Source: a phage
Length of the DNA stretch: 64,000 nt
Strand: one strand, 5' to 3'
Assembly: GCA_021081985.1 (NCBI GenBank)
Contig: GCA_021081985.1_3639.1
Shown here: positions 1 through 15,800 of the stretch, one piece after another
How the letters are laid out: every line of letters starts with the position of its first letter
Position numbering within the stretch: position 1 is the stretch's first letter
Made by a program: the position numbers and the translations under genes
The notes under the pieces: model-generated
Databases searched by the model: none
What the model was told of the DNA's origin: nothing
The model's input: the letters and a program-made list of their open reading frames with translations, nothing else

Positions 1-146
1 ATAATCTTGCGAATATTTGGTTTTACCCAATCAATAAAATCATCTAATTTATCCCGTCTGAACCTATATGCCAGATACACACATACAGAGAACAGTACAG
101 TAGTCAGTAGAACGAACACCCAATACCAAATCATAATTATTAACCT

Positions 147-1472
147 TTAATATATAGGATCCCACGTCAAAGAATCTACCTCACGAACACATTTGCCAAC
201 AGGAAATTGCGGAACACCGTCATCGGTCCTTGCTTGGTATGTAAAAGTTATATACTTGCCGATAAGTTTTTTCATATTCTCTTGTGAGCGTTCTTCGTGT
301 GTGCCTCTCATCTTACAGTTAAATTGTGTACCATCCTTCTCAGCACACAACAGGACACCTTCTCCATTCTTATCCTCAAAGGAATCAAGAACTCTGGCCT
401 CACCATCCTGAAACAATTTCCACTTTTGAAGATCAGACGATCTTTGTCCAAACTCATACTTTCCGTGAAAGTTCCTTATTACAACACCCTCATAACCTGC
501 TTCCATAAACTCCTTGATGAGCATTTTAACACGATCCTCATCAGACACTATTGCTCCGTGCACTACTTTAATCAGGTTATAAGGCCATGTATACTCAGAG
601 ACTTTCTGTAAATTATTAAACCTACACTTGTCTGTGTCAGAAGACATCCATGGTGTGTCATCTTCCGAAGGTATATCGAAAATATGATATTCTAAGTCTA
701 AACTTGAATAACCACAATACTTATTAATATTTTTCTCTGGTTTCTTTGTGATAGGATGTTCTAACCCTTCGGAGTCTTTCCAAAACTCATCACCATTGTT
801 AATTGCTTTTTCAAATCGCTTTATGTCTGATTGATAGTCTTTTTCTATCTCACATTCTATCTCTTCTGGTGTTCTCCATTTCTTAGCCAAAGAGACTATT
901 TTCTGGAGACTTAACCCATGAATATACAACTCTCCATCAAACATTTTCAATCCTGTCTTTTTGGCTAGTTTAGACATCTGATCAAGCAATTGGCCTTGTA
1001 CAGGATATGTTTTATTGCCACGACTATTAAACACAGGCACGCCATCATCACCAACCAGAACAAGTGCTCTAACACCATCAAGTTTTGGTTGAACATGCAA
1101 AGGATACACTAAAGAACTTTTCCTTTTGATGGCATCATGTGCCAGCATTGGTGAGAAATCTTGGGTTTTTGTAAGATCATCCTTAGATACGCGATACCCA
1201 AGGCGTACTTGTTTTTCCCACTTAGATTTTGCCTCCAAAACAGCTTGTTCTGTATCAGTTGTCTCATTTTTCTTACCGATGTTTTTGGCAAAGCATTTTG
1301 TGCGTTTATACTGCATTTTACCGTTTTCTTTACCAAACTCAACAACAGTTTCTGATCCATCTGCCCACACATTCCACACTTGATATGTACCATCCCTGTT
1401 TAGGGCGTATAGTGTTGGAAGGTTATTTTCAAGCATTAAATACCTCGCTTGTGACAACAGGTTTTCCTTCAA
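147..1472 (-). CDS. ATP-dependent ligase (nucleotidyltransferase superfamily)
   Basis: 441 aa; motif I KLDGVR (active-site Lys), motif IV EGVVIRN, motif V KWKLF. Confidence 0.75.
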   Translation of the reverse strand: MKENLLSQARYLMLENNLPTLYALNRDGTYQVWNVWADGSETVVEFGKENGKMQYKRTKCFAKNIGKKNETTDTEQAVLEAKSKWEKQVRLGYRVSKDDLTKTQDFSPMLAHDAIKRKSSLVYPLHVQPKLDGVRALVLVGDDGVPVFNSRGNKTYPVQGQLLDQMSKLAKKTGLKMFDGELYIHGLSLQKIVSLAKKWRTPEEIECEIEKDYQSDIKRFEKAINNGDEFWKDSEGLEHPITKKPEKNINKYCGYSSLDLEYHIFDIPSEDDTPWMSSDTDKCRFNNLQKVSEYTWPYNLIKVVHGAIVSDEDRVKMLIKEFMEAGYEGVVIRNFHGKYEFGQRSSDLQKWKLFQDGEARVLDSFEDKNGEGVLLCAEKDGTQFNCKMRGTHEERSQENMKKLIGKYITFTYQARTDDGVPQFPVGKCVREVDSLTWDPIY

Positions 1473-2214
1473 GGTGATTTTCTACCAACTCAATAAGTTT
1501 TTGGTTGCTGAATGCTTCAACTGCTCCACAGCGCATTTGGTACACACCATATTTATCATACTGCTCTTGTTCAAAGTAATTGATCGCTGGGTTTATTACA
1601 ACCAGTTTAATACCTCGTTTTGCGATTGCATGCAGCAATTCCCAGTTAAAGTCGATAACCTGATTAGAGCAGCCAACCAGAAGTACAAGATCTTGAGTAT
1701 TCAAGTCATCAAGCATGGTAAACATGTCCTGATAAAGTGGTGCATTCTCACCGAAAAATACCACATTTGGCTTGCACCACCAGTAATCATCAGGGTCAAC
1801 AACCGCATATCCGACATCAATCACACGTTTAGGAAACTCTTCACCATTCTGTACAACAAGCTCTTTGAGAAAACCATGTACATGGAGAATATCCTTCTTT
1901 TCAATGCCAGCACGTTCAAGCAGATCGTCAACGTTTGTTGTAAGATTACGTACTTGTCCAGGATAACGGTTATACCATTCTGCTACACGAAGATGTGCCA
2001 TGTTGGGGTGCACAGTCTTCAATTCTTCACGGCGTTTGTTATAAAATTCGTGTGTTTTGTGGTAAAAATTACCACGAAATGCATGAATATTACATACTTC
2101 TTCAAGATCATATTCATCCCAAAGAGCTTTACCTGACGAAGTATCTGTACGGAATGTGCGAATACCGCTTTCTGTTGACATACCTGCACCACTAATCACA
2201 AGTAATCGACGCAT
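1429..2214 (-). CDS. Sir2/sirtuin-family NAD-dependent protein
   Basis: 261 aa; N-terminal GAGMSTESGIRTFR matches the sirtuin NAD-binding signature. Confidence 0.75.
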   Translation of the reverse strand: MRRLLVISGAGMSTESGIRTFRTDTSSGKALWDEYDLEEVCNIHAFRGNFYHKTHEFYNKRREELKTVHPNMAHLRVAEWYNRYPGQVRNLTTNVDDLLERAGIEKKDILHVHGFLKELVVQNGEEFPKRVIDVGYAVVDPDDYWWCKPNVVFFGENAPLYQDMFTMLDDLNTQDLVLLVGCSNQVIDFNWELLHAIAKRGIKLVVINPAINYFEQEQYDKYGVYQMRCGAVEAFSNQKLIELVENHLEGKPVVTSEVFNA

Positions 2215-2222
2215 ATAACCAC

Positions 2223-2630
2223 CTATTGTAATTTTAAAGAGTTACGTAAACGTGCTTCTTGACGGTCACGAATAAACTGCGGGACATCATGAATGCTTTC
2301 GTTACCATGATAATTTTCCACAACTACAGATGTTACATCATAGCAGTAGTTTTCTGCTAAGTCAAGATAAGGTTTCAACTCTTTCGCAGAAGTTGTTGTG
2401 TTTGAAACAATAATCTTTTCAACTTCATTCTGCATGTGGAGTTCTACTTTGTCACGACACCATTGATGAGCTTTGTGGATATTTTCTTCTTTCCACTCAT
2501 ACACACCGTCTTCGGTGTAATGAAATTGGTCAGCTTCACACACAGGCCAACGACCATCATCAGACAACTCTTTAGCAAGAGTTGATTTTCCTGACCCAGA
2601 GACACCACGTAAAATAAATAACTTTTTCAT
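2223..2630 (-). CDS. small P-loop kinase, possibly polynucleotide 5'-kinase-like
   Basis: 135 aa; Walker A GVSGSGKST near N-terminus; sits between Sir2 and ligase-like genes. Confidence 0.55.
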   Translation of the reverse strand: MKKLFILRGVSGSGKSTLAKELSDDGRWPVCEADQFHYTEDGVYEWKEENIHKAHQWCRDKVELHMQNEVEKIIVSNTTTSAKELKPYLDLAENYCYDVTSVVVENYHGNESIHDVPQFIRDRQEARLRNSLKLQ

Positions 2631-2640
2631 TAGTTTTCCT

Positions 2641-2973
2641 TTAGTATTGGTGACGATAAAACTTTATACCTAAAGTGTTTTCGAAATATTCTCTCGCCAA
2701 CATAAACTTGTTCACGGCAGATGGGTTAGAGCTATGTACGTGAATCTCTTTAAGATTCGTAAACTTACCATCATGAAGCTCACGTTCAATATAGATGAAA
2801 GCATCGTAACCTTCCTCATCACCACCCAAATCATTATCAAAATGGATGGAATCAATGTCGCTATCACTCATAAATTTTAGTAATGAGTAGAAGCTAGAGA
2901 GATTCTTACACCATAAGGCATTAGGGTATCCATAATCTACTGGATTTCGCAGATCATCCAACCACAGTTTCAA
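2641..2973 (-). CDS. hypothetical protein in repair cluster
   Basis: 110 aa ORF tightly packed between kinase and ligase-like genes; no motif recognised. Confidence 0.45.
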   Translation of the reverse strand: MKLWLDDLRNPVDYGYPNALWCKNLSSFYSLLKFMSDSDIDSIHFDNDLGGDEEGYDAFIYIERELHDGKFTNLKEIHVHSSNPSAVNKFMLAREYFENTLGIKFYRHQY

Positions 2974-3902
2974 ATTGTACCTCCGAAAAAATCCTCAATA
3001 ATTTCACGACGGAATTGTTCATGCAAACATTCCCAATGTTCTTTAGAATAGTTATCACGCAAATAGTTTAAAAGGTTATAATACTCTTCGTCAACTTTCT
3101 TCTTAGCTTCTTCTGGGTTTCCCCAAATCATATCCCACTTGTTCTTACCGCCACGCATCAAAAATTTCTTCGCCAAATAGTGTGGTGATTTTATCTTCAA
3201 GAGAAGATCTTGCTGTCCTGTAGCAGCACGTACAACAAACCCTTCATGTTTGCATTCTTTAGACATTTTCAGGATGTCTGAAAAGTGCATATTTATGTAA
3301 GTCTCTGGTCGTTTAAAACCGAACTCTTTTGCGATAAGATCCAGAGCTTTTTCACTAAGCATAGAAGTTAATTTGTCTTTATGAAATCGAACACCAATCA
3401 AATACACACCTGCCTTTTCTGGTACAATGTGTGGGTCTGAAGGAGCGCAAATCTCAAAGATAAATGTTGTCTTTGGTTCTTCCACACATGATAACAACAT
3501 TGGCAAATTAGTACATTCTTCCATGATCATACCTTTTGCAAGTTTTGCAAAATCGGAATCTAGAGTTCCTGTTGTTGAAACAATTAGCTCACCATTGTAT
3601 GAGCTTACTGCTGCCATGAAGCCATTAACTTTACGTGCTGCATTCACAACCATATCTTTTGGAAGATCAGTACCGTTCTCTAAATGATTGAAAATCTTGG
3701 TAAAAGGCCACACAACGATGTTGTCATCACTGTCCACAACCATACCACGGCAATCAAGTAAGCGACTGTCTTGATCCCACAAGTTTTCCCAAAAAACTTT
3801 GTTACTGTATTTCAAAACAGACAAACCTTTAAACTCACCACTGGTATAAGTCTTCTTTTTGACAAGGCCTTTTGATACTAAATCTTCAACATTGAATTTC
3901 AT
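2970..3902 (-). CDS. ligase-family nucleotidyltransferase, likely RNA ligase
   Basis: 310 aa; motif I RKVNGF (KxNG), motif IV EGFVVR, motif V LLKIKSP. Confidence 0.6.
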   Translation of the reverse strand: MKFNVEDLVSKGLVKKKTYTSGEFKGLSVLKYSNKVFWENLWDQDSRLLDCRGMVVDSDDNIVVWPFTKIFNHLENGTDLPKDMVVNAARKVNGFMAAVSSYNGELIVSTTGTLDSDFAKLAKGMIMEECTNLPMLLSCVEEPKTTFIFEICAPSDPHIVPEKAGVYLIGVRFHKDKLTSMLSEKALDLIAKEFGFKRPETYINMHFSDILKMSKECKHEGFVVRAATGQQDLLLKIKSPHYLAKKFLMRGGKNKWDMIWGNPEEAKKKVDEEYYNLLNYLRDNYSKEHWECLHEQFRREIIEDFFGGTI

Positions 3903-4099
3903 TTGTCTTCACCGTCACTATTGTATGATTGTTTATTAAATGACTCAATTATACATGTTGATCGTCTTGCGTCAACAGATTGGCTTGTTAAATCTTTAGC
4001 AACAACTAGTTTTTCCACATCATCTTTTTTGATGGATCCGTAAGCACCAGAATCCATCATGAAGAATATTTTATCTTCTGTTATCTTGTGTATTTTCAT
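3899..4099 (-). CDS. hypothetical small protein
   Basis: 66 aa ORF, 4-nt overlap with upstream gene. Confidence 0.3.
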   Translation of the reverse strand: MKIHKITEDKIFFMMDSGAYGSIKKDDVEKLVVAKDLTSQSVDARRSTCIIESFNKQSYNSDGEDK

Positions 4100-4120
4100 T
4101 CATAAAATCTCAATAATTAT

Positions 4121-4699
4121 TCAATGGCCATCAGCAGTGAAAACGTCTTTTTCCATACACATTTGGTATGCTTCTGGCAGACCCAAAATTCTCCCATGTA
4201 CATCCCAACCAACATCAAGAATCCGTCCTTTCGCACTGTAAGATCCGTGACTGTGCCCATGCAAGAACACAGACCCATAGTGAGATTTATTCCACGCGGC
4301 AAACGGGTAATGACTCATACAAATTTTTTGTTCATAATCGTTAAATTCGTAATAATCGCACACATCATGACCACGTTTTTTGAATGTTTTAATCGCATCA
4401 AAATTGTCATGATTACCTTTGACAAGGACGATATGCCCAACAAGTTCATCAAGAATTTCTTCAAGTCTTTTAATAACTTGCTTGCCACGACCAAAACAAA
4501 AATCACCAAGCACAAAAGTCACAGTATCGGCATCTGCGCCGTGGTTAAATTTCACTGTGAGGTCTTGGTTCATTTGTTCAACGGTTTTGTACAAATCACC
4601 ACGAAAACGTTTTGAACTCTCAAAGTTCAGGATGTTTTTATGCCAGTAATGTAAATCAGATGTTACACGGTATTTGGTTCCCATTTCTCTCTCCCTCAC
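4121..4699 (-). CDS. calcineurin-like metallophosphoesterase
   Basis: 192 aa; GDxxxGR, GNHD and GHSH metal-binding motifs. Confidence 0.75.
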   Translation of the reverse strand: MREREMGTKYRVTSDLHYWHKNILNFESSKRFRGDLYKTVEQMNQDLTVKFNHGADADTVTFVLGDFCFGRGKQVIKRLEEILDELVGHIVLVKGNHDNFDAIKTFKKRGHDVCDYYEFNDYEQKICMSHYPFAAWNKSHYGSVFLHGHSHGSYSAKGRILDVGWDVHGRILGLPEAYQMCMEKDVFTADGH

Positions 4700-4709
4700 A
4701 CAACAAAAA

Positions 4710-5147
4710 TCACTGTCGCTCTAACAAATCTTCTGCTGGATAAGCATACAGCATGTATTCCCAACCACGATGGTAATGTCTGTGTTGCCAGTTGATTAAT
4801 TTTAGACACACAATGTTCACCACGTTCCTGTCCCCATGGATAAAAACACAAGTCTCAAGGATTGACTTTCCAAACTCAACATGACTGTCAAGATACAGTT
4901 TTGTGTTGTATCTTTTTTCAGCATCCAGCATGATCTGTTTCAAGGCCAGAAATGCCTCGCAACACACAGATTTTTCATCAGAAATCATTTTGATATTCAA
5001 GCATTCACCCCCACACAGGCAACCACGCAAATCGTGTCTGATCACCACAACACAATCGGTTTGAAACAAACCTGTTTGACACACAACAGGCATCGTCGTA
5101 GTGTCATGCCTAAACACAGACAGATATGATACGACGAAGATCCCCAC
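4710..5147 (-). CDS. hypothetical Cys-rich protein
   Basis: 145 aa ORF, several Cys pairs; first gene downstream of the AT-rich control region on the minus strand. Confidence 0.4.
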   Translation of the reverse strand: MGIFVVSYLSVFRHDTTTMPVVCQTGLFQTDCVVVIRHDLRGCLCGGECLNIKMISDEKSVCCEAFLALKQIMLDAEKRYNTKLYLDSHVEFGKSILETCVFIHGDRNVVNIVCLKLINWQHRHYHRGWEYMLYAYPAEDLLERQ

Positions 5148-5362
5148 ACAGAGTCACATAGTGACTTGTGACAACCCGAATCCATGATTGAGATAAACAC
5201 ACAGAGACAAACCTGTAGGGTTTGTTGATGTGGGTTTATCTCAGAATGGCTCATGAGGGTTAGATGATCACAAGCTATCAGCGCAGTGAGCATCTTACAC
5301 ACTCACGTATTGCCTGAAGAGTCTCATCGACTCATGCTTTCAGGCAAAACACTATGAACTCT

Positions 5363-5406
5363 ATGATTCGAAATCATCGAACCATACGATTCGACTCAAT
5401 CGAATC
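5363..5406. repeat. palindromes ATGATTcgaAATCAT and GATTCGA-n5-TCGAATC
   Basis: Perfect inverted repeats read directly in the divergent intergenic region. Confidence 0.6.
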
Positions 5407-5493
5407 ATATCAACAAAAATATTTAAAATCAAGTCTTGACATTCTTCAAGACTTAATGTATTTTAAATAAATTTTATATAATATATTATTATA

Positions 5494-5596
5494 TATAATA
5501 CGTAGTATTATATTATATTAAATTATATTATATAATTTATATTATATTAGATCATATTAAATAGATCATAGTATTATAATACGTAGTATTATATTT
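5494..5596. repeat. AT-rich direct repeats (aatacgtagtattatat x2, tagatcat x2)
   Basis: Two copies of a 17-19 nt unit about 80 bp apart in an almost pure AT stretch. Confidence 0.6.
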
Positions 5597-5644
5597 AATA
5601 GATCTTATAAGTTAGTTTAATTTGATCAGTTAGTATTGTGTCCC

Positions 5645-5689
5645 CAAAACGGGGACATACCCATGTCCCTGAAATGGGGACATATGGGA
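5645..5689. promoter_or_regulatory. paired hairpin/operator-like sites GTCCCC-n-GGGGAC
   Basis: gtccccaaaacggggaca and gtccctgaaatggggaca in tandem just upstream of a TTGACA box. Confidence 0.4.
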
Positions 5690-5693
5690 GGGG

Positions 5694-5722
5694 TTGACAT
5701 TGTGTGGGGTTATGGGTAGCAT
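5694..5722 (+). promoter_or_regulatory. sigma70-like promoter candidate
   Basis: TTGACA, 17-nt spacer, TAGCAT. Confidence 0.35.
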
Positions 5723-6129
5723 TCTCGGTGTTGGATTACACACCGGAGTTTGCCTTGAAATCTAATGTTGGGGGTTTCCATGTAAATCCGAAAGCTGGGT
5801 CATACATCGCTGTCCCGACAGAGTGGGTTTTTGATGAACGGTTATCACCAAGCGATCTGCAAAGATTGATACGCTTGTTGTGGAGATACGAGTATTTCAA
5901 GAATCTGAACCCTCTGGGTGGGGAACTGGTATTCTTTCCGTCACAACAATCCTTGTGTGGCCTGTTGGGGTGGAATGAAAACTCACGAACCAAAGTGTCT
6001 GAATTTCTGTCTCGGATGGAGAGCTTTGGTTATATCAGGCGTGTTAGATCAGGATTTCAGGATTCTGATGGTAACGTGAAACCAAGAAATTATATTATCG
6101 TCAATCGTATCAGAGGGGATAAATCATGA
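5704..6129 (+). CDS. hypothetical protein
   Basis: 141 aa ORF, 4-nt overlap with the downstream Prs-like gene; start uncertain because it overlaps the promoter-like site. Confidence 0.4.
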   Translation: MGLWVAFSVLDYTPEFALKSNVGGFHVNPKAGSYIAVPTEWVFDERLSPSDLQRLIRLLWRYEYFKNLNPLGGELVFFPSQQSLCGLLGWNENSRTKVSEFLSRMESFGYIRRVRSGFQDSDGNVKPRNYIIVNRIRGDKS

Positions 6130-6935
6130 ATATTCGTTTGAGTTTGAACAAGCTACATGTGCCAGTTGACCATTTCACATTTAGTGGTGGTGAGGAGCAG
6201 ATTAAGATCGATATGCGTCATGTTCCGCATGGTTCGATAGGTTTTGTTGATATCTTCGCTAGACTCAAGAACTCACAGGATGTGATGTGTTTGGCACTGC
6301 TTGTTGATGCAGTTAATCGTCTTGGCAATTTGGATGTTGGTGTGGAAAAGGTTTTACACCTGCCGTACATTCCGTATGCTCGACAAGACCGAGTTATGAA
6401 CCCTGGAGAATCTCTGTCGGTGAAAGTCTTTGCCACAATGATTAACTCGCTTGGTTTCCACAAAGTCATCGTCGATGATCCACACAGTGACGTATCCGCA
6501 GCACTGATTGATAACGTGAAAATTCGTTCTCAGACTGATTTGTTCTTGAACATGAATTTTGATTTTGATCTGCTTACGGACGAATCGCTTGTGTTGGTTG
6601 CTCCAGATGCAGGTGCACGCAAGAAGACCCAGAAGGTTGCTGATACCTTGGAACTATCTGTGGTTGAAGCAGGTAAAATCCGTGATGTGGGAACAGGGGC
6701 AATCACAGGCACAACAGTGTTTGGTGATGTTGGTGGGAAGACATGCCTGATTGTCGATGATATCTGCGATGGTGGGTTTACGTTTACAAACTTAGCTCAA
6801 GCCTTGAAAGCTGCTGGTGCAAAACGTGTTATTTTGTATGTTACGCATGGAATTTTCTCTCGTGGGAAAGAATTTATTCTCGACGGTGGTGTTGACGAAA
6901 TTTATGCATACTACGACTGGACAGAAAATTTTTAA
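6126..6935 (+). CDS. PRPP-synthetase-like phosphoribosyl pyrophosphokinase
   Basis: 269 aa; PRPP-binding signature LVAPDAGA and IVDDICDGG. Confidence 0.7.
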   Translation: MNIRLSLNKLHVPVDHFTFSGGEEQIKIDMRHVPHGSIGFVDIFARLKNSQDVMCLALLVDAVNRLGNLDVGVEKVLHLPYIPYARQDRVMNPGESLSVKVFATMINSLGFHKVIVDDPHSDVSAALIDNVKIRSQTDLFLNMNFDFDLLTDESLVLVAPDAGARKKTQKVADTLELSVVEAGKIRDVGTGAITGTTVFGDVGGKTCLIVDDICDGGFTFTNLAQALKAAGAKRVILYVTHGIFSRGKEFILDGGVDEIYAYYDWTENF

Positions 6936-6999
6936 GTTGGTATTGACAAAGATACGTTTTAGTGAAAAAATACGTTTTTAGGATTGGAGGGTTGAGATC

Positions 7000-8715
7000 A
7001 TGCTTCACAAAGAAAGTCCATTGCTGTTTGCAGATTTTTATAAACCAAGTCACATCTCGATGTACGACAAACGTTCACAGTTTGTTCAAGACAACATGAC
7101 ACCACGCAATGCGAAACACTTTGTACACTTTGCAGATGATGACCATCGTGTAATGTTTGCTGGTCTTCAGGGATTTATCAAGTGGTTCCTGATTGACATG
7201 TTTAATAATAATTTCTTTGCTTTACCGAAAGAAAAGGCGATTCAGGATTACAAAGAGATTTGTGATTTGAGCATTGGGAAGGATGCTGTTGAAACTTGGG
7301 GTTTTGAGAGATTGCATGATCTTGGATATCTCCCAATTGAAATTAGAGCTTTGCCTGAAGGAACTCTTGTTCCTGTTCAGGTTCCTATGTTCACGATTCA
7401 GAACACGCACCCTGATTTTTACTGGCTGCCAAACTTCCTTGAGAGCGTGATCTCCTCGGAGACTTGGAAGACAATTACCACGGCAACGACTTTCTGGCAA
7501 TATCGTAAACTATCAGAACTGTGGGCAAAGAAAACATGTGATAACAACGATCACGTTCCTTTCCAGAACCATTGTTTTGCATACCGTGGTGAAGCTGGAA
7601 CACATGACGCAGCACAGAGCGAATTTGGGCAACTGATTAGCTCAATGGGCACAGATACAATTCCAGCGATTGTTTACGCAAATCGCTATTACAACATGAA
7701 AGGTCGCTTTGTTGCTGGGTCTATTCCCGCATCTGAGCATAGCGTAGCGACAACGAACATTGGTTTTATTGTTGAGCGTATCCAGCAGGAAAATCCTGAC
7801 ATGTCGCTTGCTGAAGCACGTTTTCGTGCTGAAGTTGAGTTCTTAAAGCGTTATGCAACAGAGATTTTTCCGTCAGGCTATGCTTCATACGTCGCAGACA
7901 GCTATGATTTTTGGGCAATCATTACACAAGCAGCCAAAATCCTGAAAGATGAGATTATGTCTCGTGATGGCAAGCTGGTCTTCCGACCGGACAGTGGGAT
8001 CCCAGAGCACATCATTGCTGGCTATCGTGTGTGCTCTCAGGAAGAATGGGCAACGGGACAGTGCTGTGATATGGATGCTGTGCTGTTTAAAAATGGCAAA
8101 TATGTCACTCTGTACGAGATGTCCAGAGACACTTCTTGGATGCGAGATTCGGAAGGCAACCTCGTAGATTGGAAATCTTTGACAGGTGATGAATTTACAA
8201 ATTATCTTACCAAAGAGGAGGTTAAGGGTGCTGTACAATGCTTGTGGGAAATCTTTGGTGGTAGTGTAAACTCTTTGGGTTACAAAGTTCTTGATAGCCA
8301 TGTTGGTTTAATCTACGGAGACTCTATCACAATCTCTCGTGCTAAAGAGATCTTTGAGCGCCTTGAAGAACGAGGCTTTGCTTCCAGCAACATTGTGTTT
8401 GGTGTAGGATCTTATACAACGCAATATACAACCCGTGATTCTCTTGGGATGGCTGTAAAAGCTACTGGTGCTGTGATTGATGGCAGACAAGTAATGGTTG
8501 TAAAAGAGCCTAAGACTGATCTTGGGAAGAAATCTGCGAAAGGTTTTGTTAAAGTTATTCGTGGTGATGATGGTGAGTTGAAGCTGGTAGATAATCTTGG
8601 TATTAATCAGGTATCTGACCCTGACAACGAGCTTAGAACAGTTTTTGTTAATGGTAAGCTGCTTGTGGATGAGGATCTTGAAGAAATTCGTCAAAGAGCT
8701 TTGTCACAGCTTTAG
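7000..8715 (+). CDS. nicotinamide phosphoribosyltransferase family protein
   Basis: 571 aa; N-terminus LFADFYKPSH and overall length typical of NAMPT/NadV. Confidence 0.75.
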   Translation: MLHKESPLLFADFYKPSHISMYDKRSQFVQDNMTPRNAKHFVHFADDDHRVMFAGLQGFIKWFLIDMFNNNFFALPKEKAIQDYKEICDLSIGKDAVETWGFERLHDLGYLPIEIRALPEGTLVPVQVPMFTIQNTHPDFYWLPNFLESVISSETWKTITTATTFWQYRKLSELWAKKTCDNNDHVPFQNHCFAYRGEAGTHDAAQSEFGQLISSMGTDTIPAIVYANRYYNMKGRFVAGSIPASEHSVATTNIGFIVERIQQENPDMSLAEARFRAEVEFLKRYATEIFPSGYASYVADSYDFWAIITQAAKILKDEIMSRDGKLVFRPDSGIPEHIIAGYRVCSQEEWATGQCCDMDAVLFKNGKYVTLYEMSRDTSWMRDSEGNLVDWKSLTGDEFTNYLTKEEVKGAVQCLWEIFGGSVNSLGYKVLDSHVGLIYGDSITISRAKEIFERLEERGFASSNIVFGVGSYTTQYTTRDSLGMAVKATGAVIDGRQVMVVKEPKTDLGKKSAKGFVKVIRGDDGELKLVDNLGINQVSDPDNELRTVFVNGKLLVDEDLEEIRQRALSQL

Positions 8716-8728
8716 CAGCATAATCATT

Positions 8729-8751
8729 CCCCTCCGCACGGAGGGGTTTTT
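8729..8751 (+). terminator. rho-independent terminator
   Basis: CCCCTCCG-cac-GGAGGGG followed by TTTTT. Confidence 0.7.
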
Positions 8752-8769
8752 CATTCCTAGGAGAGCGTT

Positions 8770-8976
8770 TTGAGAAATTTCGTAGTCAAGCACGACAGAA
8801 ACCGTGCATCAGTCCACACAGACATGAAAAAAGCGTGGGAGCCAGATATCCTTGACGGACTAGAAGAACATTACATCGAAGTCGGTCTTTGCAAGGATGC
8901 CTCATGTGACCTTTCCCCTCATGAGATTGCAGTAGCAGAATACGAACGTGGTGTCAAGGCTTCTGGAATAGTTTAA
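8770..8976 (+). CDS. hypothetical small protein
   Basis: 68 aa ORF. Confidence 0.3.
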   Translation: MRNFVVKHDRNRASVHTDMKKAWEPDILDGLEEHYIEVGLCKDASCDLSPHEIAVAEYERGVKASGIV

Positions 8977-9044
8977 TTGACAAAAATAAACACCACTGAT
9001 AAGATCTAATAACAAGATAAAAATAAAGTTAGTGGTGATTTGTT

Positions 9045-9293
9045 ATGTTTAAATTAAAAATGGTTCTTAAGTCTGATAACGGGGAGTACGTAGAACATGA
9101 GTCTTTTCATAAAACACATGATGATGCGCTTGAAGAAGCGGATGATGTCGCTTTTTCTACAACTGGTTTTGGAATTGAATCCTGGAAATATATTGCATCG
9201 TTCGGTGAAGAAGGCGGGTTATATTATTTCTACCCCATCGAAGGGATTAGTACAACAAAGTACGTTATCAGGATCCTTAGAACAACCGTATAA
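9045..9293 (+). CDS. hypothetical small acidic protein
   Basis: 82 aa ORF. Confidence 0.3.
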   Translation: MFKLKMVLKSDNGEYVEHESFHKTHDDALEEADDVAFSTTGFGIESWKYIASFGEEGGLYYFYPIEGISTTKYVIRILRTTV

Positions 9294-9575
9294 AAATCGT
9301 AAACAAAGACGTGCAGAAGCTGCAATGAAAAGATCACGGAGAAAAGTAAGATGACCAAAACGTATACTGAAGAGACGCATAAACAAGTTGAGTTGTTGCT
9401 TTGTAGGTTACAACAGTGTATTGACAGAGTTCGTATTTTACGTTTTGAGTTTGAAAATAATATCTCTTAATGTGAGGAATGTATGAGAAAAGGTATTGAT
9501 TTTGAAAAAGAAGTTGGTTTCGGGGAAGGGTGTCATCAAGAAGAAAATTGGGATGTTTAAAATTTTAAAATATCT

Positions 9576-9626: not shown

Positions 9627-9702
9627 GGCCCCTTAGCTCAGTGGTTAGAGCAGGTGACTCATAATCGCTTGGTCGCTGGTTAAAGTCCAGCAGGGGCCAC
9701 CA
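9627..9702 (+). tRNA. tRNA-Met (CAU)
   Basis: Acceptor GGCCCCT/AGGGGCC, anticodon loop CTCATAA, T-arm GGTTAAAGTCC, encoded CCA. Confidence 0.8.
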
Positions 9703-9754
9703 AATGTGGCACACGAAATAAACTAGGTTTATTGTTTTCGGAGGAGAAAACTTA

Positions 9755-10078
9755 ATGGCTAAGAAACAGTCTGCTAAAAAGGTATCAGCTATCGAGGCGA
9801 TCAAGCAACCTTTTCAGTTTGAATCAAAATCCACGCAGACACATTCTGCACCGCACGATGTGCGTCTTGGTGGCAAAACGCAAACTGTAGCAGTTCTGAA
9901 AAAACGCAAAGATGAAGACGGTAATACTGAAATGTATTATGAATCTGTGTCTCGTGTCATTGGTGGTGAAGTGATTTCTGCTTCCTATCGTATCCGTACT
10001 GGGAAAACAAAGCGTGAACGAGAAGTGAAACAGAAAACAAGCACTCCTGTAGGAAACGTTAAGAAAACTAAAAAATAA
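9755..10078 (+). CDS. hypothetical Lys-rich basic protein
   Basis: 107 aa ORF directly after tRNA-Met. Confidence 0.4.
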   Translation: MAKKQSAKKVSAIEAIKQPFQFESKSTQTHSAPHDVRLGGKTQTVAVLKKRKDEDGNTEMYYESVSRVIGGEVISASYRIRTGKTKREREVKQKTSTPVGNVKKTKK

Positions 10079-10154
10079 TTTACTGACGAGAGTGCCACCG
10101 TGAGCCAGCGTCATTAAACAAAGGGAATCACGGACATTCAGGAGGGTTGAGATT

Positions 10155-10346
10155 ATGATAGGATCTTTGCTTAAGATTGCAAGCGATGTAACAACAACGG
10201 CTGTTGAAGTGACTGCTGCGGTAACAACTCCGTTTGTTGATTTAGCATCAGATGCTATAGCAGCAGCAGACGAGATGATTTTGTCACCGACATCTGATCT
10301 TGTCCAAGATCTTTGTGATTCTATAAAAGATGCTGTAAAAGATTAA
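10155..10346 (+). CDS. hypothetical small acidic protein
   Basis: 63 aa, rich in Asp/Glu/Ala/Thr. Confidence 0.35.
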   Translation: MIGSLLKIASDVTTTAVEVTAAVTTPFVDLASDAIAAADEMILSPTSDLVQDLCDSIKDAVKD

Positions 10347-10354
10347 AATTTTTC

Positions 10355-10383
10355 TTGACATAGTTTTTGTTTTTCTGTATAGT
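10355..10383 (+). promoter_or_regulatory. sigma70-like promoter
   Basis: TTGACA, 17 nt, TATAGT. Confidence 0.55.
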
Positions 10384-10419
10384 TACTTTATCAAAGCTAA
10401 TTTACATAGGAGAGATTGA

Positions 10420-11067
10420 ATGTCTACTAAGATTTCCGTAACTCGTGCACTTGCTTCTATCTCTAAGATTGAAGATAAGATCAATAAGCGCATTTATAAC
10501 CTTGAATGTATTAAGATTGCAAAAGGAACTGAGAATAATTGTAAGATTCCTGGTTATATCGGCTCTGTTGATGATTTTAAGAAATCTGCGATCAACGACT
10601 ATCAAAGTCTGCAAGACCTCTTGGCAGTTCGCGATGAACTGAAGGCAAAAATTGTCAAGTCTAATGCTGAGACAATTGTCAAAATTGGTAAGGTGTCTAT
10701 GACAGTTGCTGAGGCAATCGAACGCAAACGGACGATTTGCTTTAAACAAGAGTTGTTAAACAAACTTTGTGCACAGCGTGCTTCTGCACAGCTTCTTCTG
10801 GCAAAAGAAGAAAAATCTCTGGAAGATAAACTTGAAAATGCCAGAGCGCCATATATCCAACGTGATAAAGCGCCAGATGCAGAGCAGATTAAGACTGTGG
10901 AAGCTCCCATTCGAATGATGAACACACCATCGGTTGTGGATCCTCTTGAACTGGCTTCTAAGATTCGTTCTCTTGAAGAAGAGATTGAAGATTTCTTGTC
11001 TAACGTTGATTTTGCGTTGTCTGAGTCAAACGCTAAGACAGAAATTGAGATTGAGCACTCTCTCTAA
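10420..11067 (+). CDS. hypothetical coiled-coil protein
   Basis: 215 aa, charged and helix-rich. Confidence 0.5.
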   Translation: MSTKISVTRALASISKIEDKINKRIYNLECIKIAKGTENNCKIPGYIGSVDDFKKSAINDYQSLQDLLAVRDELKAKIVKSNAETIVKIGKVSMTVAEAIERKRTICFKQELLNKLCAQRASAQLLLAKEEKSLEDKLENARAPYIQRDKAPDAEQIKTVEAPIRMMNTPSVVDPLELASKIRSLEEEIEDFLSNVDFALSESNAKTEIEIEHSL

Positions 11068-11432
11068 AAGGCTCTGATAATATCATTATCGTTCCTTTGT
11101 TTTGAAATTTAAAACATTGCTTTTGATTAACGAAGTTTACATCATCTTGCCTCCTGGGGATTGGAGGTTAAATATTCCCCACCATGTATCGTATATGTAT
11201 GAGGATAATACAGAACATAGATGCAGCGAGGCACACGAAGATGCTTTGTTGTTTCCACTAAGTAAAAGTTCATACAATAAAGGTCAATGGTTAAATGTGA
11301 AAGATGAAACTTGAAAGTTGACTCTTGAAAGATAAAATTTCGTTTATCATCTGAAATCCTTGACACAGGTTATGGCTCACAAGATATGGTCTGTAAAGCC
11401 TCAAGGCTGTTAATCGGAAGCAATGTCTTATT

Positions 11433-11507
11433 GCTCGTATAGCTCAACGGTAGAGCACCTGCCTTGTAAGCAGGGGGTTGCAGGTTCGAAACCTGCTGCG
11501 AGCACCA
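11433..11507 (+). tRNA. tRNA-Thr (UGU)
   Basis: Acceptor GCTCGTA/TGCGAGC, D-arm GCTC..GAGC, anticodon loop CTTGTAA, T-arm GCAGGTTCGAAACCTGC, CCA. Confidence 0.8.
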
Positions 11508-11509
11508 AT

Positions 11510-11606
11510 GCTGGGTAAGCCCTTTGGCAAGGGCGAGGATTTATAATCCTGAAAATAGACGGGCTAGCCGTTGAATACATAGGTGGTTCGATTCCATCAC
11601 CCAGCC
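11510..11606 (+). ncRNA. non-canonical tRNA-like RNA
   Basis: tRNA-type acceptor (GCTGGGT/ACCCAGC), D-arm and T-arm (GGTGGTTCGATTCCATC), but the anticodon position is a closed hairpin AGGATT-tat-AATCCT followed by a second tight hairpin; about 97 nt, no CCA. Confidence 0.4.
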
Positions 11607-11807
11607 ACAAGTTTGTTTTATAGTGTATTAGCTTATATTATTCGATATAAATGCCTGATCAGCATTTGTTGTGAATGAGGCATACAATGCGTGAGAAAGC
11701 TATCGGTGCGCAACGTTGATTTCAAACGTAGTCATGCTCGTAGAGCACCAACTGTGGAAGTTGGAGGGTGGTTGAGTAACCATACACTATAAAGCATTCT
11801 TTAAAAT

Positions 11808-11892
11808 GGGCGGTGTCCCCACACAAGTCTTCTAAACTTGTACTTAAAAAGTGGGAAGGAAGTGAGAGGTTCGATTCCTCCACCGTCTACCA
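11808..11892 (+). ncRNA. non-canonical tRNA-like RNA
   Basis: 3' end TTCGATTCC...ACCGTCTACCA with a pairing 5' segment GGGCGGT, no D-arm, internal hairpin ACAAGT-cttctaa-ACTTGT. Confidence 0.3.
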
Positions 11893-11968
11893 GATTAACC
11901 CCAACTTGAGAATCGTCAGCGCGGCTCGTAAGACCCACTCTATAGGTTCTCTACCTGGGGTGCTTATT

Positions 11969-12045
11969 GCACGGTTGCCGGAATTTGGTTACGGGTCTGT
12001 CTGCAAAACGGATATATGTCGGTTCAAGTCCGACACCGTGCTCCA
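11969..12045 (+). tRNA. tRNA-Cys (GCA)
   Basis: Acceptor GCACGGT/ACCGTGC, anticodon arm TCTGT-CTGCAAA-ACGGA, T-arm GTCGGTTCAAGTCCGAC, CCA; D-stem imperfect. Confidence 0.65.
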
Positions 12046-12082
12046 AACTTTCAATTTCTTGGCAAATATGTTAAAATACCAC

Positions 12083-12111
12083 TTGACAGATATGTTTTTA
12101 TTTGATAATAT
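12083..12111 (+). promoter_or_regulatory. sigma70-like promoter
   Basis: TTGACA, 17 nt, TAATAT, followed by RBS and ATG at 12132. Confidence 0.6.
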
Positions 12112-12131
12112 CATTAAGTGGGGTTTTTAAA

Positions 12132-12479
12132 ATGGCTACTAAGCAGCTTACAAAACGTAGAAGAGGAAAAGGTCGTCCTCTGAAAGAGGAATCTAATGCA
12201 ATTCAGTTAGAGAAAAATATCCTAGATTTGAAAACGAATCTGATTGCAATGATTCCTGAAGCTCATCAGGTTCTTAGGGATTTGATGAAGAATGTGAATA
12301 CAAAAGACAATATCAGAGAAAATATCGCTCGTTATGTTATTGAGAAAGGTGAGCAGATGCTTTCTGATTACTTTGATGAGGAAAACGAAGAGTTACTCGA
12401 AAAAGATAACTCAGAAAAAGCGCCTATTAAGGCAGCCAAACCATTCTCGACGGATATTGTTCAATTCAAACAAGGTTAA
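12132..12479 (+). CDS. hypothetical protein with basic N-terminus
   Basis: ORF track 12102..12479; start moved to the ATG after the promoter and RBS (MATKQLTKRRRGKGRP...). Confidence 0.45.
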   Translation: MATKQLTKRRRGKGRPLKEESNAIQLEKNILDLKTNLIAMIPEAHQVLRDLMKNVNTKDNIRENIARYVIEKGEQMLSDYFDEENEELLEKDNSEKAPIKAAKPFSTDIVQFKQG

Positions 12480-12480
12480 T

Positions 12481-12570
12481 GTGTCGTTAGACCGTAGGGG
12501 TAGCGGGGGAGACTGTAAATCTCCTGTCTCGAAAGGGACTCGGGTAGTTCGACTCTATCACGGCACACCA
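12481..12570 (+). tRNA. tRNA-Tyr (GUA), type II
   Basis: Acceptor GTGTCGT/ACGGCAC, anticodon arm GGAGA-CTGTAAA-TCTCC, long variable arm, T-arm GGTAGTTCGACTCTATC, CCA. Confidence 0.75.
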
Positions 12571-12638
12571 ACTAAATCTGTACTGGCTTTGATGTGTGAC
12601 GATACCCTCCAATCGTGGTTGTTGGGTCAGTACAGTTT

Positions 12639-12714
12639 GGGAGTGTAGATCAGTTAGTAGATCGCTCGACCGATAATCGAGAGGACGTAGGGGCAGAGCC
12701 TACCACTCCCACCA
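12639..12714 (+). tRNA. tRNA-Ile (GAU)
   Basis: Acceptor GGGAGTG/CACTCCC, D-arm GATC..GATC, anticodon arm CTCGA-CCGATAA-TCGAG, CCA; position 33 is C and the T-loop is atypical. Confidence 0.6.
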
Positions 12715-12719
12715 AATAT

Positions 12720-12794
12720 GCATCCATAGTTTAATTGGGAAAACTACAGCCTTCCAAGCTGAAGTCGAGGGTTCGATGCCCTCTGGATGCTCCA
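12720..12794 (+). tRNA. tRNA-Gly (UCC)
   Basis: Acceptor GCATCCA/TGGATGC, anticodon loop CTTCCAA, T-arm GAGGGTTCGATGCCCTC, CCA. Confidence 0.75.
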
Positions 12795-12919
12795 GTTAAA
12801 AGATGTCAATGAAATCCGCTTGGGTCAACTGAAGACCGTAACAAATTCCATGGGGTTGTGTTTGCGGTCCAACCCTAGACATCTTCTATCTTTAGTAGAA
12901 GGCTTTAATACGGACGAGT

Positions 12920-13150
12920 ATGATGGTTTCTAAATTAATCATAACAAGGCATCATAATGCTAAAGAAATAGAGATTGTGAATGCTGCTGGCACTCTTGTG
13001 CTAAAAGTTGGTAAAGACTGTCCTTTTGAATTGTGCCAGAAGGAACTTTTAAGTTTGTGCGGTTTCAGGTTTAAACAGATTATCTTTGAAAATGCTTTTC
13101 AATATTCAGACTTAAACCAGTACATTATATCTAGGCTTGATCCTGCATGA
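12920..13150 (+). CDS. hypothetical small protein
   Basis: 76 aa ORF, 4-nt overlap with the next gene. Confidence 0.35.
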   Translation: MMVSKLIITRHHNAKEIEIVNAAGTLVLKVGKDCPFELCQKELLSLCGFRFKQIIFENAFQYSDLNQYIISRLDPA

Positions 13151-13704
13151 GATACTTGAAATATTTATCTTGGATCCTGTTAGCACCTCTTGATCCAATT
13201 ATGTCGGCTCTCTGTGTTATTCTGGCTCCTTTTGTTGTTCCGTTCTATAATGAGAAGACAGGGCATCTACCCTATATTTTCAGGTGGATGGAAACATATG
13301 ATAATCCTATAGACGGTGACAGAGGACACATAGAGAGATGGGAAGAAGTCCGTAAAATAGGAAGTTTTGGTGTTTACCTACAACGAGTTGCTTGGTTGTG
13401 GAGAAATAAAGCCTACAATTTTTCCTATCACGTACTTGGACGTGAAATCGCATCTGTGACAAAGTGGAAAGGAAACATCCATGTAAGCTCTGATGTGGAG
13501 GATAATCAACAAGGCTATTTGTTGATGTGGAATGACAATGCGTGGGGTGTATTCGCGTTTGTCCCGTCTTTTAGATTGTTTGGAAAACAATTTTACTGGC
13601 GAATTTATGTCGGTTGGAAACTGAAGAGTGTGGTTCCTGAAGACAGAGCTTTTTCAAGAGAGAGGGTGATGTTGGCATTTTTCATAAGTCCTTTCCGAAA
13701 ATAG
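13147..13704 (+). CDS. hypothetical membrane protein
   Basis: 185 aa, hydrophobic N-terminal segment LSWILLAPLDPIMSALCVILAPFVVPF. Confidence 0.45.
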   Translation: MRYLKYLSWILLAPLDPIMSALCVILAPFVVPFYNEKTGHLPYIFRWMETYDNPIDGDRGHIERWEEVRKIGSFGVYLQRVAWLWRNKAYNFSYHVLGREIASVTKWKGNIHVSSDVEDNQQGYLLMWNDNAWGVFAFVPSFRLFGKQFYWRIYVGWKLKSVVPEDRAFSRERVMLAFFISPFRK

Positions 13705-13710
13705 TTTTTA

Positions 13711-13792
13711 ATGAGAGTAGCGTAACTTCACTGGGTGAAGGCTGGCCTCCAAAACCAGTGACTAAGAGGTTCGATTCCTCACTCTCGTGCCA
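13711..13792 (+). tRNA. tRNA-like, possibly tRNA-Trp (CCA)
   Basis: Acceptor ATGAGAG/CTCTCGT, loop CTCCAAA, T-arm GAGGTTCGATTCCTC, CCA; D-region is over-long and non-canonical. Confidence 0.4.
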
Positions 13793-13793
13793 A

Positions 13794-13869
13794 AGGGGAT
13801 TAGCATAGTGGCCTAATGCAACGGGCTTTGACCCCGTGATCGGTTGTTCGAATCAACCATCCCCTGCCA
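13794..13869 (+). tRNA. tRNA-Gln (UUG)
   Basis: Acceptor AGGGGAT/ATCCCCT, D-arm GCAT..ATGC, anticodon arm ACGGG-CTTTGAC-CCCGT, T-arm GGTTGTTCGAATCAACC, CCA. Confidence 0.8.
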
Positions 13870-13878
13870 AGTTAAAAC

Positions 13879-13968
13879 GGAGAAGCAAATCGATTGGCGA
13901 CGAAACCACATTGGAAATGTGCTGACTGGTAAAACGGCTTGAGAGTTCGATTCTCTCCTTCTCCACCA
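13879..13968 (+). tRNA. tRNA-Ser (GGA), type II
   Basis: Acceptor GGAGAAG/CTTCTCC, anticodon loop TTGGAAA, long variable arm, T-arm GAGAGTTCGATTCTCTC, CCA. Confidence 0.7.
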
Positions 13969-13982
13969 GTTTTTAAGGATTT

Positions 13983-14726
13983 ATGTATGCACTCTCCCCA
14001 AGAAAAAAAAATGGAAAACAGATATTTAATTTGTTGAAAAGCGGAAAAGGCTTCTCAAACCCGCTTCAATCAGGTCTTTCTCTGGTTGGTGGTAAAGTAA
14101 GTAGTCTATCTTCTTTATCTTCCTCTATTTCTTCGGTAACTAACCCAGCTATAAAGGCTCAATTAGCTGCCGCAGGTTTGACAACTGGCGTTTTATCAAA
14201 TTTTACTTCGTCTCTTGGTTCTGTTACAAGCACGACAAAAACGCTTGTTGATTATGGTCAGAAATCTGTTGAAGAGTTCTCCCAAAGAATGCACGCAGCG
14301 AGTAATTATATGAGTACTCTGAGCAGAATGGGAGAAAAGACAAGTTGTTCAATATTTAGTGACGTTATGTCTGTAGCCACTGATTTAGGTAAGAAAGCTA
14401 TGGATGCCGTTAATTCCGCGATGGATGCGGTGAACGATGTTATGTCTCAATTGCAAGATGCAATAAATAAGGGTTTGAATACAATATCTAGTTTGGCGAG
14501 TAAAGCTGTCTCAGCGATAAACAAAGGGATCCAGAAAATGTCTGAGTATGCTAGCCAAGTGACAAAGATGATTGAAGATGAAGCAAAGAAGTTGGCAGAC
14601 TACTTAAAGACAAGTGCTGAAGGATTTCTCGCAGATATCCTACCTGATTGGTTTAACGATTCTTGTAAATCTGGTATAGTTGACCAGATTGCTACACCAG
14701 AGATGAAAGAAGTTCTTAAAAAGTAA
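13983..14726 (+). CDS. hypothetical protein with Ser/Thr-rich N-terminus and amphipathic helical repeats
   Basis: 247 aa; repeated AMDAVN/SAINKG-type helices. Confidence 0.5.
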   Translation: MYALSPRKKNGKQIFNLLKSGKGFSNPLQSGLSLVGGKVSSLSSLSSSISSVTNPAIKAQLAAAGLTTGVLSNFTSSLGSVTSTTKTLVDYGQKSVEEFSQRMHAASNYMSTLSRMGEKTSCSIFSDVMSVATDLGKKAMDAVNSAMDAVNDVMSQLQDAINKGLNTISSLASKAVSAINKGIQKMSEYASQVTKMIEDEAKKLADYLKTSAEGFLADILPDWFNDSCKSGIVDQIATPEMKEVLKK

Positions 14727-14728
14727 TT

Positions 14729-14822: not shown

Positions 14823-14901
14823 CTGTATGTCAAGGCTCAGATTTCTTCGGACCTGGGCGTTCGCCTTTGTTGGGTGTATATTCTCGGCAGAGGCTATCTT
14901 T

Positions 14902-15290: not shown

Positions 15291-15299
15291 AAATATTCA

Positions 15300-15552: not shown

Positions 15553-15594
15553 ATAAACATATACATATCAAAGCAGAAATGTACAGAGGATACC

Positions 15595-15786: not shown

Positions 15787-15800
15787 CTCTTAATATAAAT

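Follow-up and report, generated by a model that had tools for sequence, protein, structure and literature searches.

The phage DNA analyzed here (64,000 nucleotides of contig GCA_021081985.1_3639.1, GenBank assembly GCA_021081985.1; hereafter the window) belongs to an Avunavirus-like E. coli myophage (Vequintavirinae) and hosts two adjacent plus-strand genes with a spacing of 64 bp and intact reading frames. The original prediction had recognized in them a gene similar to those of phosphoribosyl pyrophosphate (PRPP) synthetases (Prs), followed by one similar to those of nicotinamide phosphoribosyltransferases (Nampt). This was corroborated by exact coordinates within 6126-8715, by domain matches, and by full length in comparison to the proteins of Escherichia phage Av-05. 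We assigned the genes as follows:

6126-6935, plus strand: adps, putative ADP-ribose pyrophosphate synthetase (Adps), Prs family, phage branch, 269 aa, ATG start; based on Pfam, NCBIfam, and PHROG matches, tree position, and signature columns
7000-8715, plus strand: namat, putative nicotinamide ADP-ribose transferase (Namat) of the Nampt family, long Bas63 type, 571 aa, ATG start; based on PDB match, clamp motif, and catalytic residues

The pair very probably represents a typical copy of plain NAD+ reconstitution pathway 1 (NARP1), an already published and catalogued system. As defined by Osterman et al. (bioRxiv 10.1101/2024.02.11.579819), Adps makes ADP-ribose pyrophosphate (ADPR-PP), which Namat converts with nicotinamide to NAD+. 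The two-gene match to this pathway, postulated at the outset, could be substantiated at sequence level by the placement of the Prs-like protein in the Adps clade of a tree, 21 out of 21 signature columns, the clamp motif of the Nampt-like protein, and the presence of the Av-05 pair in the tables of Osterman et al. We also surveyed 80 IMG/VR loci with Adps homologues and 10 kb flanks, using proteins of the window, of phage 4MG, and of a Proteus phage as queries, and found a Namat homologue in 79 of them.

Sequence features of the putative Adps and Namat

The family scores of both open reading frames (ORFs) are far beyond chance. The 269-aa ORF matches the Pfam families Pribosyltran_N, Pribosyltran, and Pribosyl_synth as well as phrog_619 (E 2e-92). 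The broad subfamily model TIGR01251 (143 bits, cutoff 113) is the only NCBIfam Prs model that it passes, all Prs equivalog cutoffs being failed (PRK01259 with 119 bits vs 297, the others with 85-102 bits vs 296-536). The alignment against characterized Adps/Namat and canonical Prs/NadV proposed with the original prediction revealed the sequence features of Adps and Namat.

We computed a neighbour-joining tree (Poisson distances, 500 bootstraps) of 18 phage proteins, the window protein included, and four bacterial Prs (E. coli, Terriglobus, Cutibacterium, and Microbacterium). The phage set includes the Adps of Bas63, validated in vivo, and of SPbetaL1, validated in vitro. Phage proteins and Prs were split with 100% bootstrap support, and the window protein grouped with those of 4MG and PVP-SE1 (100%) inside the phage clade holding Bas63 and SPbetaL1 Adps. 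The signature columns, defined by a residue common to all four Prs and absent from every phage protein, consistently show the phage state in the window, e.g., DPHS in place of DLHA and DGGFT in place of DT(G/A)GT in the phosphate loop for ribose 5-phosphate. This loop reads DDICDGGFT in the window vs DDMIDTGGT in Prs, with T225 replaced by Gly. The catalytic residues are kept (K184, R186, R86/D88, H120, and D211/D212), K184 being aligned with K162 of SPbetaL1 Adps, K190 of Bas63 Adps, and K194 of E. coli Prs; the K162A variant of SPbetaL1 Adps is inactive (Osterman et al.). Furthermore, the ~15-25 N-terminal and ~40 C-terminal residues of cellular Prs are missing. The window protein thus has neither the equivalog scores nor the Prs-specific residues, the termini, or the DT(A/G)GT loop of a canonical class I PRPP synthetase.

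The 571-aa ORF matches PF04095 (E 2e-28), phrog_448 (E 1e-194), and the NCBIfam model PRK09198 (475 bits, cutoff 405). Its top PDB match (E 2e-124) is 9W5X/9W5W, the SPbetaL1 Namat in complex with nicotinamide and with NAD+ (PMC12774641), in comparison to 2.5e-52 for Xcc Nampt and ~2e-48 for human and other mammalian Nampt. The chain 9KE8 (PDB 9KE8/9KEO), which we treated as NadV-type and whose peptide is absent from the phage tables, reaches E 4e-107, near the Namat score. As 9KE8 scores nearly as well yet reads differently at the SCH motif of the Namat-specific “selectivity clamp” defined in PMC12774641, it is the motif and not the overall similarity that discriminates Namat.

The clamp motif is present in the window protein. 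Its SCH motif reads GSYTTQYTTRD (residues 470-480) with the aromatics Y472 and Y476, whereas the equivalent positions of Xcc Nampt (GGALLQKVDRD) and of 9KE8 (GAQTYQRNTRD) are devoid of the Namat aromatics. Among 29 close homologues, K39, H40, G470, S471, T473, T474, Q475, T478, R479, and D480 are invariant and Y476 and T477 conserved to at least 90%, while position 472, being Tyr in the window, is Phe in the majority consensus. The clamp loop (SCL), which has Arg, Lys, or Tyr in third position, with this residue or the following one stacking on the adenine (PMC12774641), reads TPR-N-A-K39-H40 in the window, i.e., Lys in third position followed by His, a sequence that fits the Lys class of the Bas63 type.

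The catalytic residues F193, R196, D219, H247 (EHS motif), R329, and D331 are also kept, the counterparts in the SPbetaL1 core being F189, R192, D215, R306, D308, and the catalytic His. At all 20 NAD+-contacting positions of SPbetaL1 Namat, the window is either identical or carries the Bas63 substitution, the four positions deviating from SPbetaL1 (R40K, S190A, A362S, and F392Y) all being as in Bas63 Namat. Compared with SPbetaL1, the window protein has two insertions. The first one comprises ~21 residues after the catalytic His (residues ~254-274, window 7762-7824), the second one 66 residues vs nine in SPbetaL1 after the RPDSG motif (residues ~343-408, window 8026-8223). Both are shared in position with Bas63 Namat and highly variable in sequence among close relatives; therefore, the extra length (571 vs 491 aa) is normal for coliphage Namats. 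For the larger insertion, a small beta-rich element was predicted, the AlphaFold2 model being too poor to be trusted (mean pLDDT 46.6).

The labels Prs and Nampt, given to the proteins by Pfam, NCBIfam, PHROG, and GenBank alike, would suit a conventional salvage route as well. In this case, a true PRPP synthetase and a true Nampt would yield nicotinamide mononucleotide (NMN), with NAD+ being formed by host NadR/PncC or, as in NARP2, by a phage NMN adenylyltransferase. We consider this route very improbable in respect to the position of the Prs-like protein in the phage Adps clade, its none out of 21 Prs-specific residues, the missing Prs termini, and the altered 5-phosphate loop, even though the 571-aa protein clears the PRK09198 equivalog cutoff and 9KE8 still obtains its high score without the clamp aromatics. 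SPbetaL1 Adps gave no product in the reported PRPP-synthetase control reaction, and Bas63 overcame defence even in a ΔpncC ΔnadR host (both Osterman et al.). The clamp motif, unlike Xcc Nampt and 9KE8, and the tag of the Av-05 Namat as “Adps-associated” instead of “Nmnat-associated” argue in the same direction.

Several points nevertheless weigh against the NARP1 assignment. Identity to experimentally assayed proteins is only 36-42%, and for the window Adps, the score against E. coli Prs (80.6 bits by phmmer) comes near that against SPbetaL1 Adps (94 bits by BLAST). Since plain similarity does not separate Adps from Prs, membership rests on phylogeny and signature columns, the tree being distance-based and small with its 22 sequences. 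Likewise, standard models do not split Namat from Nampt, as seen from the Nampt-type equivalog model passed by the 571-aa protein. The SCL residue presumed to stack on adenine is His40, compared with Arg or Trp in the studied proteins, and the AlphaFold2 model, built on the alignment of the 29 close homologues, is too poor for evaluating the clamp geometry. In addition, NMN is still synthesized from PRPP by Namat enzymes in vitro, so that some NMN production is possible (PMC12774641; Osterman et al.).

Relatives, known systems, and predicted reaction

The window DNA is 95-96% identical to that of Av-05, with phages TH18, 24-2-1, and 18-1-2 being further close relatives in the same identity range. 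Av-05 (gp017/gp016, KM190144_00031 and KM190144_00030; Avunavirus, Vequintavirinae) shares the arrangement of a winged helix-turn-helix (wHTH)-like gene, adps, and namat with the window, the proteins being of equal length (141, 269, and 571 aa) and 99.3%, 92.6%, and 98.2% identical at 100% coverage. In the tables of Osterman et al., KM190144_00031 stands among the Adps homologues (Table S1, “Namat within 10 genes = Yes”) and KM190144_00030 is entered as an “Adps-associated” Namat (Table S2). The nearest relative of the window is therefore already among the 859 published NARP1 phages.

On nucleotide level, identity to Av-05 amounts to 99.3% for the wHTH gene, 95.7% for namat, and 91.7% for adps (window 6126-6935 vs L001:12527-13336 of our locus set). 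Being the most diverged of the three genes, adps accounts for 20 amino-acid changes, 13 of them at residues 125-189; this mosaic divergence suggests recombination or a faster evolution of Adps. Both genes are under purifying selection, with ratios of nonsynonymous to synonymous substitution (dN/dS) of 0.17 for adps and 0.04 for namat in the comparison to Av-05. It is hardly conceivable that they are decaying, nonfunctional remnants in a variable region, a notion that could draw on the larger distance of adps to Av-05 relative to its flanks and on truncated or fused versions occurring elsewhere (the Ag3 Adps-Namat fusion, phrog_12872). Full-length ORFs with every catalytic residue intact, the low dN/dS, and ribosome-binding and terminator signals at the genes contradict it. 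Judged by these features, adps and namat are working genes.

The fusion mentioned is found in Shigella phage Ag3 (FJ373894_00125; Osterman Table S1), where one ORF combines ~220 N-terminal Adps residues with the C-terminal half of Namat. The join lies directly after DDICDGGRTF and the N-domain of Namat is missing. PHROG 12872 is built on such ORFs, which are probably deletion products liable to be misannotated as intact Nampt.

Within the characterized systems, Bas63 (JohannRWettstein; bas63_0079 Adps and bas63_0080 Namat, validated in vivo) has the adjacent, co-oriented pair as in the window, at identities of 38.9% for Adps and 41.6% for Namat. Its Namat is likewise of the long type with both insertions, the SCH motif being GSYTYQYMTRD vs GSYTTQYTTRD in the window and the stacking SCL residue being Trp instead of His. 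The gene contexts differ: the Bas63 pair is found with Nrd and rII genes, whereas the window has a wHTH gene and an RNA-repair cluster, both missing in Bas63. For the Bacillus phage SPbetaL1 (biochemistry, crystals 9W5X/9W5W), identity is 35.8% over 63% of the query for Adps and 40.1% for Namat. The nicotinamide-, NMN-, and AMP-contacting Namat residues are conserved or conservatively replaced in the window, while the shorter SPbetaL1 Namat (491 aa) is devoid of the ~21-aa and ~57-aa insertions and uses Arg40 directly in its SCL.

The NARP1-AP variant of Vibrio phage Gary (Adps, the Macro-domain phosphatase Adpp, and Namat) has the two core enzymes in common with the window. The ORFs flanking the operon gave no Macro Pfam match, no RyR accessory genes were found near the operon, and neither Av-05 nor 4MG is contained in the published NARP1-AP table. 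In the 80 surveyed loci, a Macro gene was present in 11, matching the published 15%. The NARP2 system (Nampt/NadV and bifunctional NMNAT-Nudix of Vibrio phage KVP40) and bacterial NadV-Prs share the fold, catalytic core, and catalytic His of Namat/Nampt with the window pair, and Adps resembles Prs in the PRPP-synthetase fold as well as in the catalytic Lys and Arg. They differ in the substrates, which are ADP-ribose (ADPR) and ADPR-PP for NARP1 vs ribose 5-phosphate and PRPP in NARP2/NadV-Prs salvage. Within the part of the window ORFs scanned, no NMN adenylyltransferase partner of the NARP2 type was detected, the partner of Namat being Adps.

By analogy with the Bas63 and SPbetaL1 experiments, we infer the chemistry as well as the anti-defence phenotype. 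Adps would pyrophosphorylate free ADPR at ribose C1'' in an ATP-dependent reaction, and Namat would then form NAD+ directly by replacing the pyrophosphate of ADPR-PP with nicotinamide. The compounds thus used would be exactly the ones released by NADases of the SIR2, TIR, and SEFIR types; restoration of NAD+ by the operon would accordingly take place only after depletion by host defence, letting the phage replicate. If the assignment is right, the phage is predicted to escape the NAD+-depleting defences type I Thoeris, DSR1/2, SIR2-HerA, SEFIR, Kongming, and SPARSA. Depletion of the aRES type yields ADPR-1''P, against which plain NARP1 should fail by the logic of the aRES paper. As no Macro gene accompanies the operon, the phage is predicted to be aRES-sensitive unless another phosphatase substitutes, and no escape is predicted from aRES- or Metis-type depletion. 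Such assignments are of use for host-range prediction within this O157-infecting phage group, which is considered for biocontrol. Conceptually, they add nothing new on NARP1, with ~4% of sequenced phages carrying the pathway and the lineage being already part of the published list.

Operon layout and putative control signals

The following features accompany adps and namat:

5639-5684: tandem near-palindromes of 19-21 bp, TGTCCCCAAAACGGGGACA and TGTCCCTGAAATGGGGACA, 25 bp apart, candidate operator
5694-5722, plus strand: sigma-70-like promoter candidate (TTGACA, 17 nt, TAGCAT) before the first plus-strand gene, consensus match only
5704-6129, plus strand: small wHTH-like ORF, 141 aa from GTG 5704; phrog_8453 (E 6e-53), weak HTH_Crp_2 matches
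6943-6971, plus strand: promoter-like site (TTGACA, 17 nt, TG-AAAAAT) in the adps-namat spacer, consensus match only
8729-8756, plus strand: strong intrinsic terminator, a G+C-rich hairpin (CCCCTCC-GCAC-GGAGGGG) with a T-run (TTTTTCATTC) behind it, 14 bp past the namat stop

The wHTH gene, adps, and namat appear to constitute one transcription unit with promoter-like sites at 5694 and 6943, closed by the terminator at 8729; sigma-70-like consensus matches are no more numerous in the region than expected from shuffled sequence. The stop of the wHTH ORF overlaps the adps start (ATGA), and TTG 5755, preceded by a GGAG Shine-Dalgarno motif, is a plausible other start of this ORF. By tblastn, its homologues were detected in 74 phage records only, all of them rV5-like, and beside adps where the annotation shows it. 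The 64-bp spacer between adps and namat also carries two copies of ATACGTTTT(T)AG. Rfam revealed no riboswitch or other RNA family above noise within 5000-9300.

The tandem palindromes are located just upstream of the promoter-like site of this unit. Their pattern, TGTCCC-N6-GGGGACATA, occurs nowhere else in the window (four strand-matches vs 0.84 expected). At the equivalent place of phage 4MG (L006:7230-7290), two copies of another repeat are found, TCAATTTGAG-N-TAGGCT. Both sets of repeats would fit lineage-specific operators for the wHTH protein, by which NARP1 may be autoregulated.

The spacer between the divergent units (5440-5620) is extremely AT-rich with many AT palindromes and contains a 21-nt direct repeat, TATAATACGTAGTATTATATT, at 5494 and 5575. 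The deposited contigs of phages 18-1-2, 24-2-1, and 19-1-2 all end in or near it (~window 5186-5663), which suggests either an assembly-breaking repeat or a physical feature of the genome. The slot between adps and namat is occupied in other lineages. Phages similar to 4MG harbor an extra 177-aa gene there (4MG gp257, L006:8415-8948), which gave no Pfam match, has no Macro domain, and is missing from the NARP1-AP list as well as from the window and Av-05; homing endonucleases take this place in L052 (GIY-YIG) and L084 (HNH).

The adjacent sirtuin and RNA-repair genes

On the minus strand, a gene cluster diverges from the NARP1 operon across the AT-rich spacer:

4121-4699, minus strand: calcineurin-like metallophosphoesterase, 192 aa (PF00149, E 6e-8; phrog_547, E 9e-45)
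2970-3902, minus strand: T4 Rnl1-like RNA ligase, 310 aa (PF09511, E 4e-18; phrog_562)
2641-2973, minus strand: cREC (cyclic-phosphate processing receiver) domain protein, 110 aa (PF20274, E 8e-16)
2223-2630, minus strand: P-loop kinase (AAA_33, polynucleotide-kinase-like), 135 aa (PF13671, E 9e-10; phrog_2071, phrog_505)
1429-2214, minus strand: sirtuin, Sir2 family, 261 aa (PF02146, E 6e-26; top PDB match E. coli CobB 1S5P, E 3e-19)
147-1472, minus strand: ATP-dependent DNA ligase, 441 aa (PF01068, PF14743; phrog_114, E 2e-83)

The sirtuin keeps the NAD+-binding motif GAGxSxxSGIxxFR and the catalytic HG, with only one Cys in the segment of the usual Cys4 zinc module. Such features agree with the “distinct clade of sirtuins” linked to RNA repair by Iyer, Burroughs, Anantharaman, and Aravind (2022, PMC9503650). 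For phage V5, these authors describe a “type 2” sirtuin-centred, predicted NAD+-utilizing RNA-repair neighbourhood consisting of sirtuin, T4-like RNA ligase, cREC, nucleotide kinase, MazG, and sometimes a calcineurin-like phosphoesterase. Sirtuin, RNA ligase, cREC, kinase, and phosphoesterase of this neighbourhood are all present at 1429-4699; MazG was not detected within 1-5300 of the window, loci similar to 4MG having it further upstream. The Sir2 gene is accordingly part of an rV5-type repair neighbourhood and not free-standing. In the passages of the paper dealing with phage NadV-like genes, these are treated as NMN-forming salvage enzymes and not linked to the sirtuin neighbourhood.

The divergent arrangement also occurs in 4MG (Seunavirus), PVP-SE1-like phages, and phi92, the latter with no annotated Sir2, so that the adjacency of NARP1 and the Sir2-repair genes is a conserved synteny of the rV5-like group (Vequintavirinae, phi92). 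The original prediction had described this combination as notable: its genes at 147-4699 are real, whereas its novelty does not hold in view of Iyer et al. and the conserved synteny. Upstream of NARP1, the Sir2/RNA-repair cluster is likewise seen where the contigs of phages 18-1-2, 24-2-1, and 19-1-2 end. In Av-05 as deposited, the stretch upstream of the operon differs and the cluster of the window and 4MG is not there, owing either to a real rearrangement or deletion or to an assembly difference. The deposited Av-05 genome measures 120.9 kb, compared with 133-148 kb in relatives.

Just downstream of the NARP1 operon, ARAGORN detected 14 tRNA genes on the plus strand (9627-15958; Met, Thr, Cys, Tyr, Gly, Gln, three Ser, Lys-UUU, Asn, Pro, Leu, and Phe). 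With the repair genes upstream, the region thereby becomes a tRNA-centred accessory zone.

Analysis of the 80 loci revealed an RNA ligase (Rnl1-like or RtcB) or cREC at a distance of up to 10 kb from Adps in 16 of them, corresponding to 10 out of 60 Adps clusters at 60% identity and seven out of 34 at 50%, all of these being raw counts with no control for chance. Sir2 was present in five loci, exclusively Vequintavirinae-like ones. A ligase gene that directly adjoins adps in the same orientation was seen in several lineages not belonging to the rV5 group. Gene orders in the surveyed loci include:

L032: Rnl1, ending 29 bp before adps
L041: RtcB, ending 159 bp before adps
L084: Rnl1, kinase, adps
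L067: adps, namat, Macro, phosphoesterase (MPE), Rnl1, kinase, DNA ligase
L045: two RNA ligases upstream of adps

In Proteus phage 3H10_20 (Grimontviridae), kinase, MazG, adps, and namat follow each other in a row, with RtcB and cREC nearby. This repeated proximity is suggestive. It fits two readings, namely a biochemical NAD+ loop or a shared location of counter-defence genes within a single accessory region expressed early.

For such a loop, NARP1 of rV5-like phages would additionally or mainly act as the NAD+-recycling arm of the adjacent sirtuin-centred tRNA-repair module. Rnl1, kinase, and cREC would heal and seal cleaved tRNA in the manner of yeast Trl1, whereupon the sirtuin would strip the 2'-phosphate at the expense of NAD+ (as Tpt1/KptA do), thereby freeing nicotinamide and ADPR 1''-2'' cyclic phosphate. 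The latter would be turned into ADPR by cREC and the metallophosphoesterase, and Adps and Namat would rebuild NAD+. A candidate gene for each of these steps is encoded within 147-8715, and the roles of sirtuin, cREC, and phosphoesterase are independently predicted in the account of Iyer et al. The conserved divergent adjacency, the recurrence with two unrelated ligase families, and the gene row of the Proteus phage point in the same direction, as does the homology of the Macro Adpp of NARP1-AP to the yeast tRNA-splicing enzyme Poa1p.

We rate the loop as unlikely, because Sir2 is confined to Vequintavirinae-like loci, neither KptA/Tpt1 nor another NAD+ consumer was found beside NARP1 in the other ligase-positive lineages, and ligation by RtcB is independent of NAD+. 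The neighbours in those lineages are TerB/C/D, SpoU methylase, homing endonucleases, dCMP deaminase, an intein-split Rnl2-type ligase, and an exoribonuclease, the missing NAD+ consumer weakening the biochemical coupling. Moreover, the calcineurin-type phosphoesterase and the kinase could equally be a healing pair similar to T4/Clostridium Pnkp, leaving no 2'-phosphate, and the NARP1 loci of Bas63, SPbetaL1, and Taipeivirus have no annotated RNA-repair genes nearby. Anti-defence islands would explain the adjacency with no chemistry involved.

The repeated placement of NARP1 beside RNA-repair genes is the only thread of this analysis with some discovery value. If it were statistically and biochemically real, NAD+ reconstitution would be tied to tRNA repair, and the two sets of genes would be a functional unit recurring in several phage lineages. 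In this case, the phosphoesterase would correspond to Adpp as its non-Macro analogue and could also confer aRES resistance.

Ter genes of the tellurite-resistance type were observed in two loci as further neighbours of NARP1, in addition to RtcB. TerD follows namat in the Proteus phage locus (L007), and in L041, TerD, TerB, and TerC precede the row of RtcB, adps, and namat, with a SpoU methylase located after it.

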